DNA from: Lytechinus pictus | Lineage: Eukaryota | DNA length: 64,000 nucleotides | Assembly (NCBI RefSeq): GCF_037042905.1 | Contig: NC_087250.1 | Span: 13,084,001 to 13,148,000, forward strand | Direction: 5' to 3' | Part shown: positions 33,482 through 60,583 of the stretch, piece by piece | Layout of the letters: every line of letters begins with the position of its first letter | Numbering within the stretch: position 1 is the stretch's first letter | Program-made: the position numbers and the translations under genes | The notes under the pieces: model-generated | What the model saw: only the letters and a program-made list of their open reading frames with translations | Database searches by the model: none | Told to the model about the DNA's origin: nothing

Positions 33482-34519
33482 GATATTATCATTATTTTCA
33501 TTTTTACCTTATTTCTCATTTTCATCAACAGCATTATAACAATGACCAACATCGAACTCGCTCTCAGCTAAAAAAAAGTATAAACGAAAACAAAACTTGC
33601 TTTGTCATTTTATTTTCCCAGGGCTGAGTAGAATCCGTCTTATCACAAATGTAAGAGATACCCATCACAAAGTTATCAATACCACACAAAAAGCTTCGCC
33701 ACTCATTAAATCAAAACATATAAAGTGAAAGTGATACAGACAGTTCCTTGTACCAGTGCGGTATGGCATCACCACCTCTTAAGGAAGATGGATATTAATA
33801 TCTCGATAAAGTTAGTCTCTGTCGTATTTTTCGTTTGAGGAGTCACGCATGGATACCATCGCCGCCATCTCGAAGCCCGCCCGTGCCTCGTTAATTTGAA
33901 CACACACGATCCGTGGTTATGGTAACGCGGGACGCACTCCGATGATTCTTTGTGTTTCCCTGGAAACCAACAACGCTCCTGCCGCATAGAGAAATATAAA
34001 TCGAGAGAGAAGACACTTGTTGATGGTGATGATGATGTTGCGATGCCGATATGAATTTCGGCATTGTATGAATTCCATTAGTTAATTGGTTGAAGATGCA
34101 CAGGGTTACTTGTAGTTTAGACAGTATCGCAATAAATTGCTAATAATCAAGCGCTGAAATATTAATTAGCGTCCACTACTACATTTATACATATCACATT
34201 TTTTCATCCTTGGTACTTGCAAGGACAGTTGGTGGTTGTGCTTAAGAAGCTTTGACAGGTCGAAATTGCACATAATGAGAAGAGTGTTTGAAATAATTTC
34301 CAATTCAGAAATAAAAGTAAAATTATCAGAATCCAACAAACATTGACAAATGGACAACCACACAATTCTCTGAATTGAGGATATTCAACGAATGATCATT
34401 AAAAAGCGTGTACGTGGTTGCCGAGTACAATAGTTCTTCTGGAAGAACGGGCCCCCTTCTCGCACAATTATAATTCACGTGCCCTCGCAGGACCACGTGA
34501 CATTTTGTTAGGTCAATAT

Positions 34520-34576
<57 letters not shown>

Positions 34577-34952
34577 CTATATAAATGTGTGAAGTTATAC
34601 ATGTACAACAACTTTGGCAACTCTTTTATTTAAATATTTTGTGAAAGAAATGGATGAAGAGAACAATGGTAGGCATAGCTTAAATCAAGGTTCCCCAGAG
34701 CTATCTACCCTTTGGATCCGATTAACCGTCAGATAGACAGATTTTCGACACTATACAATTATAATTTCCTTTGTCGGGTGAAGATGGGTTTTGAACAATG
34801 AACAAGCAATAGCTTTGATCCAGCTGAGGCATGGCGGCTTGTCATTGTTCAAAATCCACCTTCACCCGACAAAGGAAATTGTAATTGGTATAGTGTTGAA
34901 AATCTGTCTATCTGACGGTTAATCGGATCGGGGTCGCCCTAGCCACTCACCC

Positions 34953-35024
34953 GTCTCTGTGGTCTAGTGGTTAAGGCACCGGCGTTCAAAGCTGGGGGCA
35001 CGGGTTCGATTCCCGGCAGAGACA
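34953..35024 (+). tRNA. tRNA-like gene with UCA anticodon (opal-suppressor-like; tRNA-Glu-like body), copy 1
   Basis: Acceptor GTCTCTG/CAGAGAC 7 of 7; D stem GTCT/AGGC; anticodon stem CCGGC/GCTGG, loop GTTCAAA (TCA at 34986-34988); T arm ACGGG-TTCGATT-CCCGG (one mismatch); TTTTT immediately downstream. Confidence 0.6.
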
Positions 35025-35359
35025 TTTTTCGGCATCACCAATTTTTCCAAAGGGTTGATAGCTCTGGGGAACCTTGATTTAAGCTATGCCTACCATTGTT
35101 CTCTTCATCAATTTCTTTCACAAAATATTTAAATAAAAGAGTTGCCAAAGCTGTTGTACATGTATAACTTCACACATTTGTATACTTTCTCCCATACGTG
35201 TACTGTATCAAAGCAATAGCTTTGATCCAGCTGAGGCATGGCGGCTTGTCATTGTTCAAAACCCACCTTCACCCGACCAAGGAAATTATAATTGGTATAG
35301 TGTCGAAAATCTGTCTATCTGACGGTTAATCGGATCGGGGTCGCCCGAGCCACTAACCC

Positions 35360-35432
35360 GTCTCTGTGGTCTAGTGGTTAAGGCACCGGCGTTCAAAGCT
35401 GGGGGCCCGGGTTCGATTCCCGGCAGGAGACA
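35360..35432 (+). tRNA. tRNA-like gene with UCA anticodon, copy 2
   Basis: Same fold; perfect T stem CCGGG/CCCGG; one extra G in the 3' acceptor strand; TCA at 35393-35395; TTTTTT terminator. Confidence 0.55.
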
Positions 35433-35714
35433 TTTTTTGGCATCACCAATTTTTCCAAAGGGTAGATAGCTCTGGGGAACCTTGATTTAAGCTATGCCTA
35501 CCATTGTTCTCTTCATCCATTTCTTTCACAAAATATATATATATGTGTGTGTGTGTGATGGTGTGTGTGAGAGGGTGTGTGTGTGGATGCACATACTGTG
35601 GATGTTGCATGGATTAAAAAAAAAATAGTGATAAAGATACACCAGCTGTTGAAATATATCAGTTCTTGTTCTTCTTCTATACTGTTTAGTGATATCAGGG
35701 AGTTTATTCATAAG

Positions 35715-35945
35715 GTGTTGGGGCTCAGTGGATAAGTATACTCTCTTCGAAACAAAGGTACCGGGTTCAAAACCCTACCGCGGCACTCGTGTCCTTTGGC
35801 AAGAGGCGATGCCACTCTCCATCCATGTGAAGTGAATGGTTAAGCCTACCCGATATTTTTTAAATGCTCGAGCGCCAGATAAGAGTAGCGTTGCTAAAGC
35901 TTGGGTTATAGTAAGCGGTGTTTTAAATAATAGCGCTATTAAAAT
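35715..35945 (+). mobile_element. Diverged tRNA-derived SINE
   Basis: GGCTCAGTGG...GGGTTCAAAACCC...GTCCTTTGGCAAG...GCCACTCTCCATCCA, similar to the 32122 SINE. Confidence 0.6.
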
Positions 35946-49896: not shown

Positions 49897-50682
49897 ATTT
49901 CATCATTATTACAAGCACTATTGTAGCACCAATATTCTCGTAAAATTACACCGGCCATTGTCATCTTTATCACTCTTATATTCCCTGCTATTGTAATTTT
50001 CATCATAATTTCCCTTTCCTTCTATCGCATTTGTCTATTTCAGATTGGTTTTTCATCGCCTCTATTCTGATGCTGAATTCCGCTGTTCGGTCCCACATGT
50101 TGAATTTGCCGTCATAAAGCACACAGACCCTAACGTTACCGACCCGAATAAAGATCCACCTGCTATCCCTTGGCATCTACAATAAGGCATTCTCCATGTG
50201 CGACCATTCGCGATCGATTGGCGCACTAACGGCAGGACTCTGACTCAACGTTTATCAATCATGCACTACTTGTCGTTTTCACCGCGCTGGTAAGTCGTGC
50301 GACACCCCGCTTTATTTAGAGAAGCAACAGCTGACTGGAGAACGTTATTGATTTCATTTCGTGTTAAAAATTTGAAGTCACATTTATTGGATAAATAATA
50401 ACGGTCTATTCAGCGCATTATCAGCAAAGATTACTTAGTGACTGCTTTACCAAACGTGCTGTCTGCAGGCCATTCTCGTAAAGGGATTCGTTTATCGGGG
50501 AACCTGATGCGACTTTTTCGCCAATAGATATTTCGAAACTATATATCACCATGTAGAAAACTAAAACCATTATGGTGTTTCTTAACCTGTTGTAAAGCTT
50601 TTCTGAATGTAACCGTAAATGTTATTAGTTACTACCGACGTGCCTTAATATATAAAGATTTAAAATACGATACCAAATTGCC

Positions 50683-52369
50683 ATGGATCAATTGCTAAAG
50701 TTATCCAGAGGACGTTTGAAGTTCTTTGGTTTACTCATTGTAGCAGCGGTGGCTATGCCTGCTTCAGGTGTTGACGTTGGGAAAGGAGCTGTTGAAGTAT
50801 CGCTACCCGCTGTTACCGATGAATTGCCAGAGCCCGAGGGCGTCCTAGATGGAGATTGCATGAACATCTCTTTGAAGAACAGCGATTGGAGCTGGAATGG
50901 CGTCGATGGACAACAGGCAGAAGGAGAAACGGCACTGCTGCTCAGGAGACTGATCAAAAGACTAAACAATGCGACTCAACGAATCCACGATGACAATCCC
51001 AATCTGAATTCGACACAGTTCATAAATGTTGTAGCCAGTCGCTCTTCCCTGTTGTTGTTGAAGATCAAATCGTTCGCCCGTGTCTTTGGCCAGATAAACT
51101 CCTTCTATGGATACACTTGCCGGAACGGAAAGGATCTCCTGCGACATGCCCTCAACAGAAACATAACCGCAGATGAATCTGAAGATTTCGATGACGAGCT
51201 AGCTGAAGAGATAGATGCTGCTATCCATGAGGTTATGGGTGATGATAATGGGGATGCAGAAGAAGGCGGTGAGGCGGAGGAAGAGGAAAGTGGTGGGGAA
51301 GAAACGGAGCCAGGTCGTGGTCCAGGTCCGAAACCTAACAGCAAATCACTTGGAATGCAGAACAAGACACTTGCCATACGAAAAAGAAACAAAATTGCAG
51401 TCAGGATGTTCATCAAGAAAGCTCTCGTTGCTTTGTTCCTGTCACAACATCGGTTCAAAGGGTCTAGGATGTCTCTGCAAGAAGTTATCCAGCGACTTGG
51501 AGAAGATGGGAGACTCGGAAGCATAGACCAGAGCAAGCCGAGACACGTAGGTGGAAGGAATGAAACCGCGGATAGCACGGAGGTAGCTGGGGATGATGAC
51601 GGCTTGACAGGCATAATGGGTGAAGACTCAGACGAGATTATGGATATCTTCGAATCCGTAGAATGGTTTGATGACGAGGGCGACAACTCCGACGTTGAAG
51701 ATGAGGAAGAGGTCCGCAGGAAATTCACACTTGAAGGATACCTGCTCAAGCTTATGTCTGTGTATGTCAACAAGAGTGCTTCGTGCGCGAGACGGGTCAC
51801 CAGGTTCATCAGGCAGAGAGCCAAGCACCTACCGAATAAGACAGACGATGAAGAGGAATTCACTGATCTCTGGAAAGATTACATGAAATTGGTTCGTCAG
51901 ATGAATGTTTCGCGGCACCAGCAGGCCAGCGATGGTTCACTGCGTAACGGAGGGGAGAACTCTTCGAGCGAAGTTGAAGTGCAAACTGGGAATCCCCTGC
52001 AGGAGGATGGACCTCTTGTCTCCAGGATTCGTAACATCACGCAACGACTCGTTGAAGGTAAATGGAGCGGAAAGGGGGGCATCGAGGGTCGCTTCTATGT
52101 GGTTGTATTGAAAATGGCTCAAGTGATCAATAACTGGGGAAAGGCAGGCTTCTTGACCAATGGAACATACTTCGACGCTAATTGTTCGCCTGGTCGATCG
52201 TCGAGTGAGGGTGCCACGACAACTTGTCGCATATGTCCCACAGATGCCTCCATTGGGAACCTTCGAATGCTTCTCTCTGAGCTAGATGACACCATCGAAG
52301 AAGTCTATGATGATATCAGGGACAGAGTGGATAGACTGACTAAAGGAACACCAAAAGAAAAACTGACAG
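50683..52369 (+). CDS. Large uncharacterised secreted glycoprotein, coding exon 1 (signal peptide plus repeat domain 1)
   Basis: GCCATGG Kozak; signal MDQLLKLSRGRLKFFGLLIVAAVAMPASG; GC-rich ORF until donor ACAG|GTAGGA, after which composition becomes intronic; phase 1. Confidence 0.85.
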
Positions 52370-52926
52370 GTAGGACTAAATCTCATCATTTATCATTCCA
52401 ATGCATCAGTACATTTGCCAATTATCTCTCTCTCAAACTCATTAGGCTATCTACTTTTTGTAAAAAAAACCAAATACATGTAAATATACGCATAACCCTA
52501 CGGGAAGGTAAAACTAAAATCTATAACAACAAAATTATTTTCAACTTTTTTGGTAACTTCATGTTATAAAACATGACCAATATGCGTATTATTGTTTTAA
52601 AATATTGCCTAATAGATGTTTTACTCTAAGGATACAACATATTGTTCATGTACATATATGTAATTAGCTTAATTGGCGCAAATGCTGTGGATCATCATCA
52701 TCATTGTCGACTTTCATATTCATTCCATATTATATGTGGCCCGTTACCCCCAATGCCAACGATAAGTCGCCAAGGAGGTTTATCTGTACATAAACTAGTC
52801 CAAATAGTAACTTGGTGTTTATGAACTAAAATTTCGAAATCATTCTCGTCTCAAAGAGCAATTTTGAAACTGAATAAAATACGATCAACGGGAGTTTCTT
52901 TGACACCTCATTTTCCAGAGTTCCTG

Positions 52927-57782: not shown

Positions 57783-58361
57783 CATTTATTTTCTTGTTGT
57801 TTTGCTTTCAAACAAGCTTACTTGTTTAAGGGTTTCCTCCTTCTTAAATCAAATATTTTGACAGAGTATGCAATGCCTTGTTCATCACGAAGCCCTCTGT
57901 GGCATTTCCTTAAATCGTTAAGTTGATAAGAGTGGTGATGATCTTTCGAATGTCACTCTATCATTTTCTTGTTTTTTTGTACTACACATTCATTTCGATC
58001 ATTTCAATAACATTTTTTCTGACCCAGCATTTTCGTAAAATTGGTATTTTTCATTAAATCTTCGACGCACGTTTTACTATCTATTTGCGTTTTCATAAAC
58101 ACTTCAAATTTGCATTACTTTTACCTACGCTGCTACGCATTATTCGACTATTCTAACTTAAACAATTCTCACTTTACTTTTTATCTGGAAATTAGCACGC
58201 GTACCTTTTCCTTCGTTAACACAACACTTGTTTACGCTCGCATCTAATCAATCTTTTTCAGTTTCATTGCATAGAATATTAACATAAAAATGTGTTTTTA
58301 GTCCCGAATTGTCACATTGTTCAGCGGTCAGATACATTGGAATATTCCTAATTTTTAACAG

Positions 58362-60583
58362 GGATGTTCACAAAACCACGGCGACTTCTCAATACGCACG
58401 GCGCCGACTGCTTCGCCCTAACCTTCGCAACAAAAGACTGGCGTCTGTTTCAGTATGAGAGCCTCAGTGGAAAAACGAAGGATGGTGGAGACGAAGGTAA
58501 TAGTGATGAGGGCGAAACTGATTTGGAAGAGGATGATGACGAGGAAAACATTGGTGATGTCGCAGACGAAAACGATCAGGGAGAGGCAAATGCGACGGCA
58601 AATGTAGAAAGCGAAGTGGACCAGAAAGGGACAGATAGAAAAGATGGTCACCAGGCCCGTAGGTCACCTTTTCCACGTGCAAGGAATATTCTTAACAGCC
58701 AAAGTAGACAGATTCGGATGATCACTAGGGATATTACTATTGGAAGGATTGTGCGGCTTATTGTGAGGCAATCTGCAGTTCGCATGCTAAAGGTTCTGAC
58801 CTTTGAAAGAGTTTTTAAAATGATTCACAGATCAAACAGTTTTATTTGTACGAATGCAGAGCCTCTCATGAGGGAAGCACTAGGGCCTAACGCAACATAT
58901 CTAGAATTGTCAAACATGTCGGCAGTTCTAAAGGCTATCAATCGAACGATAGCCGAAGTTCGTAAGGAAAGTACCCCAATTTCGAGCTCCAGTTATAGCA
59001 AATCTGGATCCGTGTCATGGTTAACCGACACTGGTCGGTATCAAGACCGTGATCGGGAAGGGTCAGAACCATCAGGTTCACTAGAAGATCCCAGGCCAGA
59101 GTCAAGAGAAGGGTCTCCTTCATCGGGTTCACGAGAACGCATCGGACCAGAGTCAAGAGAAGGGTCACGCCAAAGTTATGAGAGTGGATCGAGCGATGAC
59201 GGCTACAAAGCAAAGAATCCAATGAAGACACTAGAGGTGGAGGAAAGACAAAGTCTTTTGCAACGATTCAGGCAAGCAGCAATAATTGGATTATTCTCTG
59301 CGCCTCGGAGAATAAATAACCAAAGACTGTCTCTTTCCGAGTATGTAGCGATGTTGGCTTCTTTTTGTCAACATCAGAGACGTGGACCAAACTCAGTGTT
59401 CCGTGACTTAGACAAATGGTTACAAGAATATAGGGAGAATGTGAATGCACGTAACTATACCATTAACAAACACAACAAATCACTTACATTCTTAAAGCCA
59501 GGAGTACGTCCTCGAATTATCACATCAAGGCGAGAAAGGTATCGTCATGGCCAAAGAATGGAGATTATTACTTCATCCTCTTTCAAGTTTTGTTTGCCTG
59601 ACGATATTCATGGCTACTGCGGTAACAGGGAGGAACGCTACGGTAAGGTGATTGATAGATTTATAGGAATGTCTAGCAGTGCCAACACATCAGTTGTAAA
59701 GGAAGTAGACAGAGATAAACACGAGAAGGCTAAGGCAGATGAGACGAAGATGGAACATTTTACCATTGAAGAATTTCTTTTAGAGCTGATGATATCCATG
59801 TCCACGAAGACTTCTTCCTGTGCGAGTAGAATTAATCGTGCCTTGCGATTACATGGAAAGCCTGTGTTTGGTGTTCCCAGAATGAAAAAATACAATGGTA
59901 CAAGAGCTAATCCGGAACCTCGTAGTGCAAAGGGCATTGCTGTAACGCGGACGCCCGGGAAGAAATCGGACACACCTGGATCTGAACATTTTGTCTACAA
60001 ACATAACAAGAGTTCGAAGATGTATAAGGAGTACTTGGAGAGCATGAAATCTTGCCGAGGATCCGACTTTATCGAACGTCGGCTGGAAGGCCACACATGG
60101 GGTGAAACCTACCAAATAAGCTTGTTCTACTTCAAGGTCTTAATGAAAATTTCAGAGATGATAGACATATGGGGACGTTCCATGCGGGAAGGAGGAGAAA
60201 CCTTATACAATACATCATGCCAACAAAACGAAGACGGCGACGTGTTAACAACATGTAAGGTATGTGTTAGAGAGTCCGCAGTCGGTACTTTCGAAGATCT
60301 TGTTGGCACTATCGACGACATCCTTAGATCAACCAAGGAGACTTTAGCAACGGGTGTCAACGACTGGAAACAGCTCGGGGTATCTAAAAATAATGGAACC
60401 TTTTGGCAAAATGGTGATAAAGAAAGAAAGGGTCAAAAGGGTGACGATGACGAAAGGAAAGGAGCTGAAGGGAAAGGGACAAGCGAAGAAACTGATGGAA
60501 TGCCAGGCAGAAGACCTGATGGCAACCCCGGAAGAAACCCAGGAGGAAGATCAGATCACAGAACAGGTAAATACTATTCATAA
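58362..60583 (+). CDS. Large uncharacterised secreted glycoprotein, coding exon 2 (repeat domain 2); ends at stop 60583 or splices at donor 60566
   Basis: Acceptor TTTTAACAG|GG is phase 1 and joins exon 1 in frame (G+GG = Gly, then MFTKP...); colinear homology to exon 1; candidate phase-1 donor ACAG|GTAAAT at 60566/60567. Confidence 0.85.

Follow-up and report, generated by a model that had tools for sequence, protein, structure and literature searches.

tRNA-like genes with a UCA anticodon on a 406-bp satellite-like repeat of Lytechinus pictus

Two tRNA-like genes with the anticodon UCA, which would read the stop codon UGA, lie close together in a stretch of 64,000 nucleotides of Lytechinus pictus (contig NC_087250.1, positions 13,084,001 to 13,148,000 of the forward strand). 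This whole stretch is called the window below, and all coordinates without a contig name refer to it. The initial annotation described the two genes as copies of a repeat-borne gene that might encode an opal suppressor tRNA. The locus therefore raises the question of whether these genes are maintained because they decode UGA, or whether they have multiplied with the repeat on which they reside.

Two tRNA-like genes and their surroundings in the window

The following features were recognized, with the basis of each in brackets:

34516-34583, no strand: (AT)n tract that bounds the inverted arm on its outer side, adjoining the reverse complement of the 3' end of the unit (TRF, period 2, 34.5 copies)
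34578-34801, minus strand: inverted partial unit without the 117-bp tRNA segment (inverted repeats)
34804-35210, plus strand: repeat unit 1, 407 bp; the majority unit of the family is 406 bp (direct repeats)
34930-34952, plus strand: 23-nt G+C-rich leader upstream of copy 1, kept in single copies (sequence)
34953-35024, plus strand: tRNA-like gene copy 1, anticodon TCA at 34986-34988 (ARAGORN, Rfam, fold)
35025-35046, plus strand: trailer with two T5 runs (sequence)
35211-35543, plus strand: repeat unit 2, which ends at the internal TA-rich site of the unit at about position 330 (direct repeats)
35360-35432, plus strand: tRNA-like gene copy 2, anticodon TCA (ARAGORN at 35360-35431, Rfam, sequence)
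35534-35590, no strand: (TA)n/(TG)n simple-repeat tail after unit 2 (sequence; TRF at 35547-35585)

Both genes can be drawn as cloverleafs, of 72 nt in copy 1 and 73 nt in copy 2. The stems, the GT-TCA-AA anticodon loop, the 4-nt variable loop and the A- and B-box letters are all present in the sequence as the initial annotation described them. The same holds for the T run right after the discriminator, which is a T5 run in copy 1 (35025-35029) and a T6 run in copy 2 (35433-35438). A second T5 run lies at 35042-35046, 12 nt beyond the first terminator. Each copy has a different single defect, as had been noted earlier: a T-stem mismatch in copy 1 (A at 35000), and an extra G in the 3' acceptor strand of copy 2.

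ARAGORN called both copies 'tRNA-SeC (tca)', a label that is given from the anticodon alone. The best Rfam family was the general tRNA model RF00005, with 53.8 bits for copy 1 (E 6.8e-10) and 49.3 bits for copy 2 (E 1.2e-8); both copies span model positions 1-71, and the gathering score of the model is 29. A 31-nt core of the tRNA matched twice in the window and never in 100 shuffles. The minimum-free-energy fold of copy 1 was the cloverleaf (-28.9 kcal/mol, z -2.17). Thermodynamic folding adds little here, however, because the minimum-free-energy fold of a true tRNA-Gly gene was not a cloverleaf. Position 32 is a G in both copies, which the initial annotation had rightly marked as atypical, and also in the family majority. 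Cytosolic tRNAs are expected to have a pyrimidine at this position, and a G is rare in decoding tRNAs.

The two units form a direct repeat with a spacing of 407/408 bp and 96-97% identity. Between the inverted arm upstream and the direct unit, one stretch of 139 nt is 97% complementary and shorter ones of 42-46 nt are 93-98% complementary. Compared with the direct unit (34578-34801 versus 34842-35184), it lacks exactly the 117 bp at 34930-35046, from the start of the 23-nt leader across the tRNA to the last base of the second T run in the trailer. This is the stretch that a Pol III primary transcript might cover, and a further copy (L017) ends at the same right-hand boundary. A tRNA-free sister family, into which the module would have been inserted late, was considered and rejected, since the tRNA-less junction is unique in the genome: both a full-length search and a junction pattern with at most 3 mismatches matched only the window itself.

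Just past the repeat, at 35700-35800, the window contains further tRNA-like box letters (GGGGCTCAGTGG ... GGTTCAAAACCC). ARAGORN and Rfam made no call in this stretch, which may be the head of a SINE.

The repeat family and the anticodon of its tRNA

The genome assembly comprises 811.7 Mb in 368 contigs. A pattern that fixed the D-loop, the letters TTCAAA and the T-loop found 1,948 copies with a TCA anticodon in the whole genome and no control matches; one of the 100 matches listed first belonged to another tRNA-derived family. A pattern that fixed only 13 nt upstream and 16 nt downstream, and left the tRNA free, gave 910 matches, again with no control matches. The window copies are 2 of about 1,900 copies on a unit of 406-407 bp, in agreement with the claim that they are repeat-borne. 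At 406 bp for each of roughly 1,900 copies, the family amounts to about 0.1% of the 812-Mb genome. The D-loop letters recur in another, scattered tRNA-derived family, which differs in its anticodon arm and has variable anticodons (e.g. C8:32557234, C9:24239857, C12:23657967).

The units occur in two arrangements. Head-to-tail arrays with a period of 406-407 bp are found at L011, L014, L015, L018, L019 and L042, several loci of 3.1 kb hold seven units each, and at least 35 consecutive units are present at C2:8.866-8.880 Mb. Such fixed-period head-to-tail arrays are characteristic of a satellite. In addition, the units are dispersed in hundreds of short runs with (TA)n at the end. The family is present on all large contigs, and contig C1 (44 Mb) has, among the matches listed, 56 copies in roughly 45 places. 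The unit and its tandem junction were also found in reads or contigs of 4 sequencing runs under three organism labels, with joints between successive units of 404-407 bp in all 4 runs. The sequence strings of the family tRNA had no match in the literature searched; most subscription journals were outside the reach of this search, so that an earlier description is possible.

To place the tRNA itself, we read genes for tRNA-Gly(UCC) (a 27-gene cluster on C13), tRNA-Glu(CUC) and tRNA-Glu(UUC) from the same genome. In the D arm (GGTCTAGTGGTTA) and throughout the T arm, the family tRNA equals the genome's own tRNA-Glu, in line with the likeness to metazoan tRNA-Glu noted in the initial annotation. 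The loop-plus-stem letters TTCCAAGC are shared with tRNA-Gly(UCC), with the exception of the third anticodon base. Over the aligned columns, identity was 57/76 with Glu(CUC), 54/75 with Glu(UUC) and 52/74 with Gly(UCC). Hence, the family tRNA can be described as a hybrid in likeness, with Glu-like D and T arms and a Gly(UCC)-like anticodon loop. Scores against RF00005 were 48-60.8 bits for family copies, including 57.6 bits for a near-majority copy with one T-stem substitution (L086) and 60.8 bits for a copy with the anticodon TCC, as compared to 63.6 bits for a true tRNA-Gly gene.

True tRNA genes are clustered in this genome as well. The 27 tRNA-Gly(UCC) genes lie within 80 kb (C13:22.08-22.16 Mb), and tRNA-Glu clusters at C17:25.857-25.881 Mb and C16:2.595-2.599 Mb comprise a run of Glu(CUC) genes and a Glu(UUC) array with a period of about 386 bp.

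With stems of 7, 4, 5 and 5 bp and the conserved letters of the D- and T-loops, the family gene has the form of a cytosolic tRNA. It has the anticodon UCA in common with tRNA-Sec. In tRNA-Sec, however, the acceptor/T helix is extended (13 bp in all), the D stem has 6 bp and the variable arm is long, whereas the family gene has a 7-bp acceptor and a 5-bp T stem, a 4-bp D stem and a variable loop of 4 nt. We rejected tRNA-Sec on these grounds, as had the initial annotation.

The third anticodon base (position 36) varies within the family. With the same pattern, it was A in about 1,940 copies, C in 22, T in 9 and G in 6. The TCC pattern had 58 matches, of which 28 were true tRNA-Gly genes and 8 belonged to another family, in addition to the 22 family copies; the search for T or G at this position had 16 matches, one from another family. 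Simple recurrent mutation is made less likely by these counts, since the transition product G is rarer than C. Eight of the 22 TCC copies were fetched, chosen among those with few other changes, and ARAGORN called all eight tRNA-Gly. A flank marker was present in 4 of 7 TCC copies versus none of 23 TCA loci, and the median flank divergence was 0.077 for TCC and 0.043 for TCA (one-sided Mann-Whitney, P 0.011). Hence, the TCC copies are best regarded as a separate lineage that differs from the TCA copies by one base.

The age gap between the two lineages is partly what one would expect for any mutation carrier (observed mean TCC flank divergence 0.082, calculated expectation about 0.063), so that it does not prove the direction of change from UCC to UCA. 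Our preferred reading is that UCC was ancestral and changed to UCA, because the anticodon of a tRNA gene must originally have been a sense one; the alternative is that the TCC copies are a side branch. In either case the family has amplified with a sense (glycine-type) as well as with a stop-reading anticodon, which implies that it was not built around the decoding of UGA.

Maintenance of the copies and possible roles of the tRNA-like gene

Selection on the tRNA was studied in loci L032-L072 only, which were chosen without regard to the tRNA letters and comprise 91 matches in 34 loci. Loci L001-L030 were dropped because they had been picked for their similarity to the tRNA segment. All letters prescribed by the search patterns were left out as well. 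Overlapping loci were merged; L047-L049 are segmental duplicates 4.2 kb apart, which the clustering counted as three loci.

Private substitutions per locus-site were about as frequent in the tRNA (35/2,376 = 0.0147) as in the flanks (116/6,413 = 0.0181; OR 0.81, P 0.31), and this also applied to non-CpG sites alone (0.0129 versus 0.0180, P 0.13). The stems, with 31 variant types on 42 sites, were no less variable than the loops, with 17 on 30. The pair was broken by 22 of the 31 stem variant types and kept by nine, versus 18% expected to be kept for random changes, and the 52 sampled copies contained no compensatory double change. Since private substitutions match those of the flanks and stems break freely, the individual copies decay at about the neutral rate and, as judged from their sequences, are not maintained as suppressor genes. 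The initial annotation had named neutral decay of the stems as evidence against its proposal of an opal-suppressor function. Such decay is what we found, and the proposal is not supported by these data.

CpG sites in these loci gained private substitutions about 1.1-1.9 times as often as other sites. This low excess implies that the copies do not look heavily methylated in the germ line.

Many copies are still intact. In the unbiased sample, 16 of the 52 copies equalled the majority sequence, 30 kept all 21 pairs and 51 kept TCA, while ARAGORN still called 48 of them tRNA. The majority sequence is a perfect cloverleaf, in line with the earlier expectation that the consensus would be fully paired, and the same was true of 51 of 75 copies in a sample biased towards best hits. 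Most copies look intact because the burst of copying was recent. With its boxes, its leader and a T run that was present in all 52 sampled copies, the gene has the form of a stand-alone Pol III gene, as the initial annotation had recognized; the first T run was T6 in 50 of them and T5 in two.

Variants shared between loci showed another pattern. Their load per locus-site was about threefold lower in the tRNA (0.015) than in the flanks (0.047), and variants in at least 10% of the loci occurred at 2 of 72 tRNA sites versus 29 of 217 flank sites (P 0.014; P 0.12-0.34 at higher cuts). In a sequencing run under another organism label, the single common change in the tRNA was A68 to G (35020), in about half of the reads, and this change keeps a pair (U4-G68). 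Because shared variants are rarer in the tRNA and the common change is pair-keeping, source copies may possibly be under constraint.

Taken together, we consider it probable that both genes in the window are a tRNA-gene-derived module that rides on a young 406-bp satellite-like repeat amplified as DNA, with the opal anticodon as a by-product. The module would consist of the leader, the 72-nt cloverleaf with its A and B boxes, and the T run, all in the middle of the unit. The repeat would multiply at the DNA level, into long head-to-tail arrays and into hundreds of short runs that often form head-to-head inverted pairs and that end on their 3' side at fixed TA-rich sites followed by (TA)n. The module would be carried along as a passenger, or at best act in cis as a Pol III/TFIIIC site. 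However, for a passenger the module is unusually well kept, given the perfect majority cloverleaf, the 48 of 52 copies called as tRNA and the lower number of shared variants. Moreover, an active Pol III gene requires intact boxes and a T run at its end, and the module has both.

These counterarguments lead to an alternative that we regard as unlikely, namely that the module is kept in source copies for a role in cis, to which decoding is irrelevant. The tDNA, bound by Pol III or TFIIIC, could act as a boundary, a chromatin mark, or a site of replication or recombination. Alternatively, the module could serve as a tRNA-shaped handle at which RNase P and Z cut long array transcripts. A cis role would fit the depletion of shared but not of private variants, the preservation of the A- and B-box letters and the T run, and the continued amplification with either UCC or UCA. 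The depletion, however, was measured in 34 loci whose copies are related, and it reaches significance at the 10% cut only.

Transcripts bear on this alternative as well. Four of the 24 listed sequencing runs were examined for the unit, one of them with the raw reads of ordinary paired RNA-seq. The 20 runs in which the unit occurs carry 0.22-0.36 of the sampled words, and none of them is on record as RNA. In the one RNA-seq run, the whole unit was evenly covered on both strands (about 130-390 reads per bin), and reads crossed the tandem junctions. This would fit transcription of the arrays, and hence a handle for processing, although it could be carry-over of DNA. Against processing, read ends did not pile up at the borders of the tRNA in this run, from a type of library that misses 72-nt RNAs. 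DNA carry-over, read-through transcription and array transcription could each account for the coverage, which has no bearing on a processed tRNA.

That the copies are active natural opal (UGA) suppressor tRNA genes, which allow read-through of host or element ORFs, we consider improbable. Several observations speak for it: the complete form of the gene, the UCA anticodon of the great majority of copies, the high score of the near-majority copy (57.6 bits), and the fact that none of the four runs, under three organism labels, had an anticodon variant at 10% or more. Furthermore, eukaryotic TrpRS reads features that include the discriminator A73, C35 and A36. These points are set against the neutral decay with its broken stems, the sister lineage that reads a glycine codon, and the G at position 32. 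Moreover, roughly 1,000 intact suppressor genes are expected to be harmful if active.

The surroundings of the gene add to this. The 40 nt upstream of the family gene are 38% A+T, as compared to 82% (40 nt), 63% (27 nt) and 50% (26 nt) in three true tRNA genes; such G+C-rich upstream DNA, unlike that of these true genes, is a weak hint against active genes. The repeat unit has no coding element linked to it in which a TGA might be subject to read-through. In the one gene family examined for the use of TGA as a sense codon, HSP70, there was no sign of it: all five long exons, with frames of 589-608 aa, were free of in-frame stops, TGA included, and the stops at the ends of short HSP70 exon matches were a mix of TAA, TAG and TGA. 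Presumably the genes are silent or their RNA decodes poorly. So many potential suppressor genes might be tolerated by the cell through silencing, poor decoding or absence of charging.

The long ORFs of the window had no Pfam match. Two stop-free frames, at 50656-52569 (+) and 58352-60583 (+), encode 637 and 743 aa without a Pfam family; several motifs recur in both translations, which look like paralogues, and the N-terminal part of one of them includes a hydrophobic stretch.

A variant of the suppressor idea, to which we attach very little probability, is that the roughly one thousand intact UCA genes form a normally silent reservoir. Derepression in the germline, under stress or in a hybrid would then yield a charged, UGA-reading tRNA; from the anticodon and A73 it would presumably be charged with Trp. 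If so, a burst of genome-wide stop-codon read-through could follow, from a repeat-borne opal suppressor under the standard code.

Mode of spread and comparison with known systems

The ends of the repeat were analysed in 117 runs that lie wholly inside the examined loci. The 3' ends were sharp, with most runs ending in the bins at unit positions 330 (40 of 117 runs), 370 (14) and 380 (41), and the 3' flank was TA-rich in 86 of the 117 runs, or in 70 by a stricter test. The 5' ends were scattered across the whole unit. On the 5' side, 67 of the 117 runs adjoin an inverted copy, as is the case in the window. Foldback elements and MITEs have inverted terminal arms around a constant inner part, together with a target duplication of fixed length. 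A relation to such elements may exist; the inner junctions of the runs vary by locus, and no regular duplication was seen: a target-site duplication of at least 8 bp was found in one of 14 usable runs (13 bp, at L059), versus 3% of shuffled pairs. No carrier element was seen in 12 aligned single copies, which share nothing beyond the unit and (TA)n.

The tRNA occupies positions 150-221 of the unit. Its position in mid-unit, the T run that follows immediately, the scattered 5' ends and the few duplications exclude an ordinary Pol III-transcribed SINE and indicate copying at the DNA level. We infer that this copying is primed at (TA)n tracts. As (TA)n is self-complementary, a broken AT tract may act as a primer on another AT tract and start the copying of the unit beside it. 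Copying would run inward from the 3' end of the unit for a variable distance, before the two sides are joined in a head-to-head arrangement. In this way the fixed 3' ends, the (TA)n and the head-to-head pairs hint at spread by copying from broken AT microsatellites.

It is highly unlikely that the unit is instead a tRNA-derived SINE, i.e. a retroposon copied via its Pol III transcript by a LINE enzyme, for although it has a tRNA-like part with A and B boxes, fixed 3' ends with a (TA)n simple-repeat tail, variable 5' ends and one copy with a 13-bp flanking duplication (L059), the tRNA is not at the 5' end but has 149 nt of the unit upstream of it, just 3 of the 117 runs begin right upstream of the tRNA (bins for unit positions 120-149), a T5-T6 terminator follows the tRNA in all 52 copies with a second T run 12 nt later, perfect head-to-tail arrays reach at least 35 units, and target-site duplications are confined to 1 of 14 runs. 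The statement of the initial annotation that this is no ordinary SINE head, since the tRNA is complete and has its own terminator, is borne out by its place in the unit.

The family has a practical consequence for annotation, since about 1,900 'selenocysteine' or 'suppressor' tRNA genes will turn up in the output of tRNA finders for this genome; the family should be masked as a repeat. A similar case is Schistosoma mansoni, in which, according to the part of the source covered here, about 2,368 tRNA-Gln(TTG)-like calls are Sm-alpha SINEs (PMC2770079). In both cases a single repeat family yields thousands of tRNA calls and inflates one 'isotype'. In contrast to Sm-alpha as described there, the carrier in L. 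pictus is not a SINE: the tRNA, which lies in mid-unit, is complete, acceptor stem included, and is followed by a terminator of its own, and the 406-bp units stand in tandem arrays. Moreover, the anticodon reads a stop codon here and a sense codon there.

Tandemly repeated tDNA clusters of Arabidopsis are reported, in the part of the source covered, to be transcriptionally silent through their genomic and epigenetic context (PMC7544208). They resemble the arrays described here in that head-to-tail units each contain an intact-looking tRNA gene with conserved Pol III elements. However, the Arabidopsis clusters, as far as that part of the source describes them, are few and consist of genes equal to functional tRNAs with sense anticodons, whereas the units in L. 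pictus are also dispersed, often as inverted pairs with (TA)n ends, and the tRNA body matches no single isotype. Silencing is reported in Arabidopsis and only inferred here.

Bivalves have dispersed satellite-like repeats that are tied to mobile elements, according to the covered parts of two papers (PMC7492417, PMC8268682). They share with the present family the short arrays and single monomers scattered through the genome. In L. pictus, by contrast with what those parts describe, the 12 single copies have no conserved ends of a carrier element beyond the unit. The text of the two papers covered here mentions no tRNA genes in the bivalve repeats.

Hence, repeat families that flood tRNA finders, and silent tandem clusters of intact tRNA genes, were already known. 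What differs in L. pictus is the combination: a whole tRNA gene with its own terminator lies in the interior of a satellite-like 406-bp unit, the unit apparently spreads as DNA, with (TA)n ends and head-to-head pairs, and most copies have a stop-reading anticodon. It suggests that a complete tRNA gene can ride on a DNA-amplified satellite-like unit rather than on a SINE, and can flip between a sense and a stop-reading anticodon as it does so.
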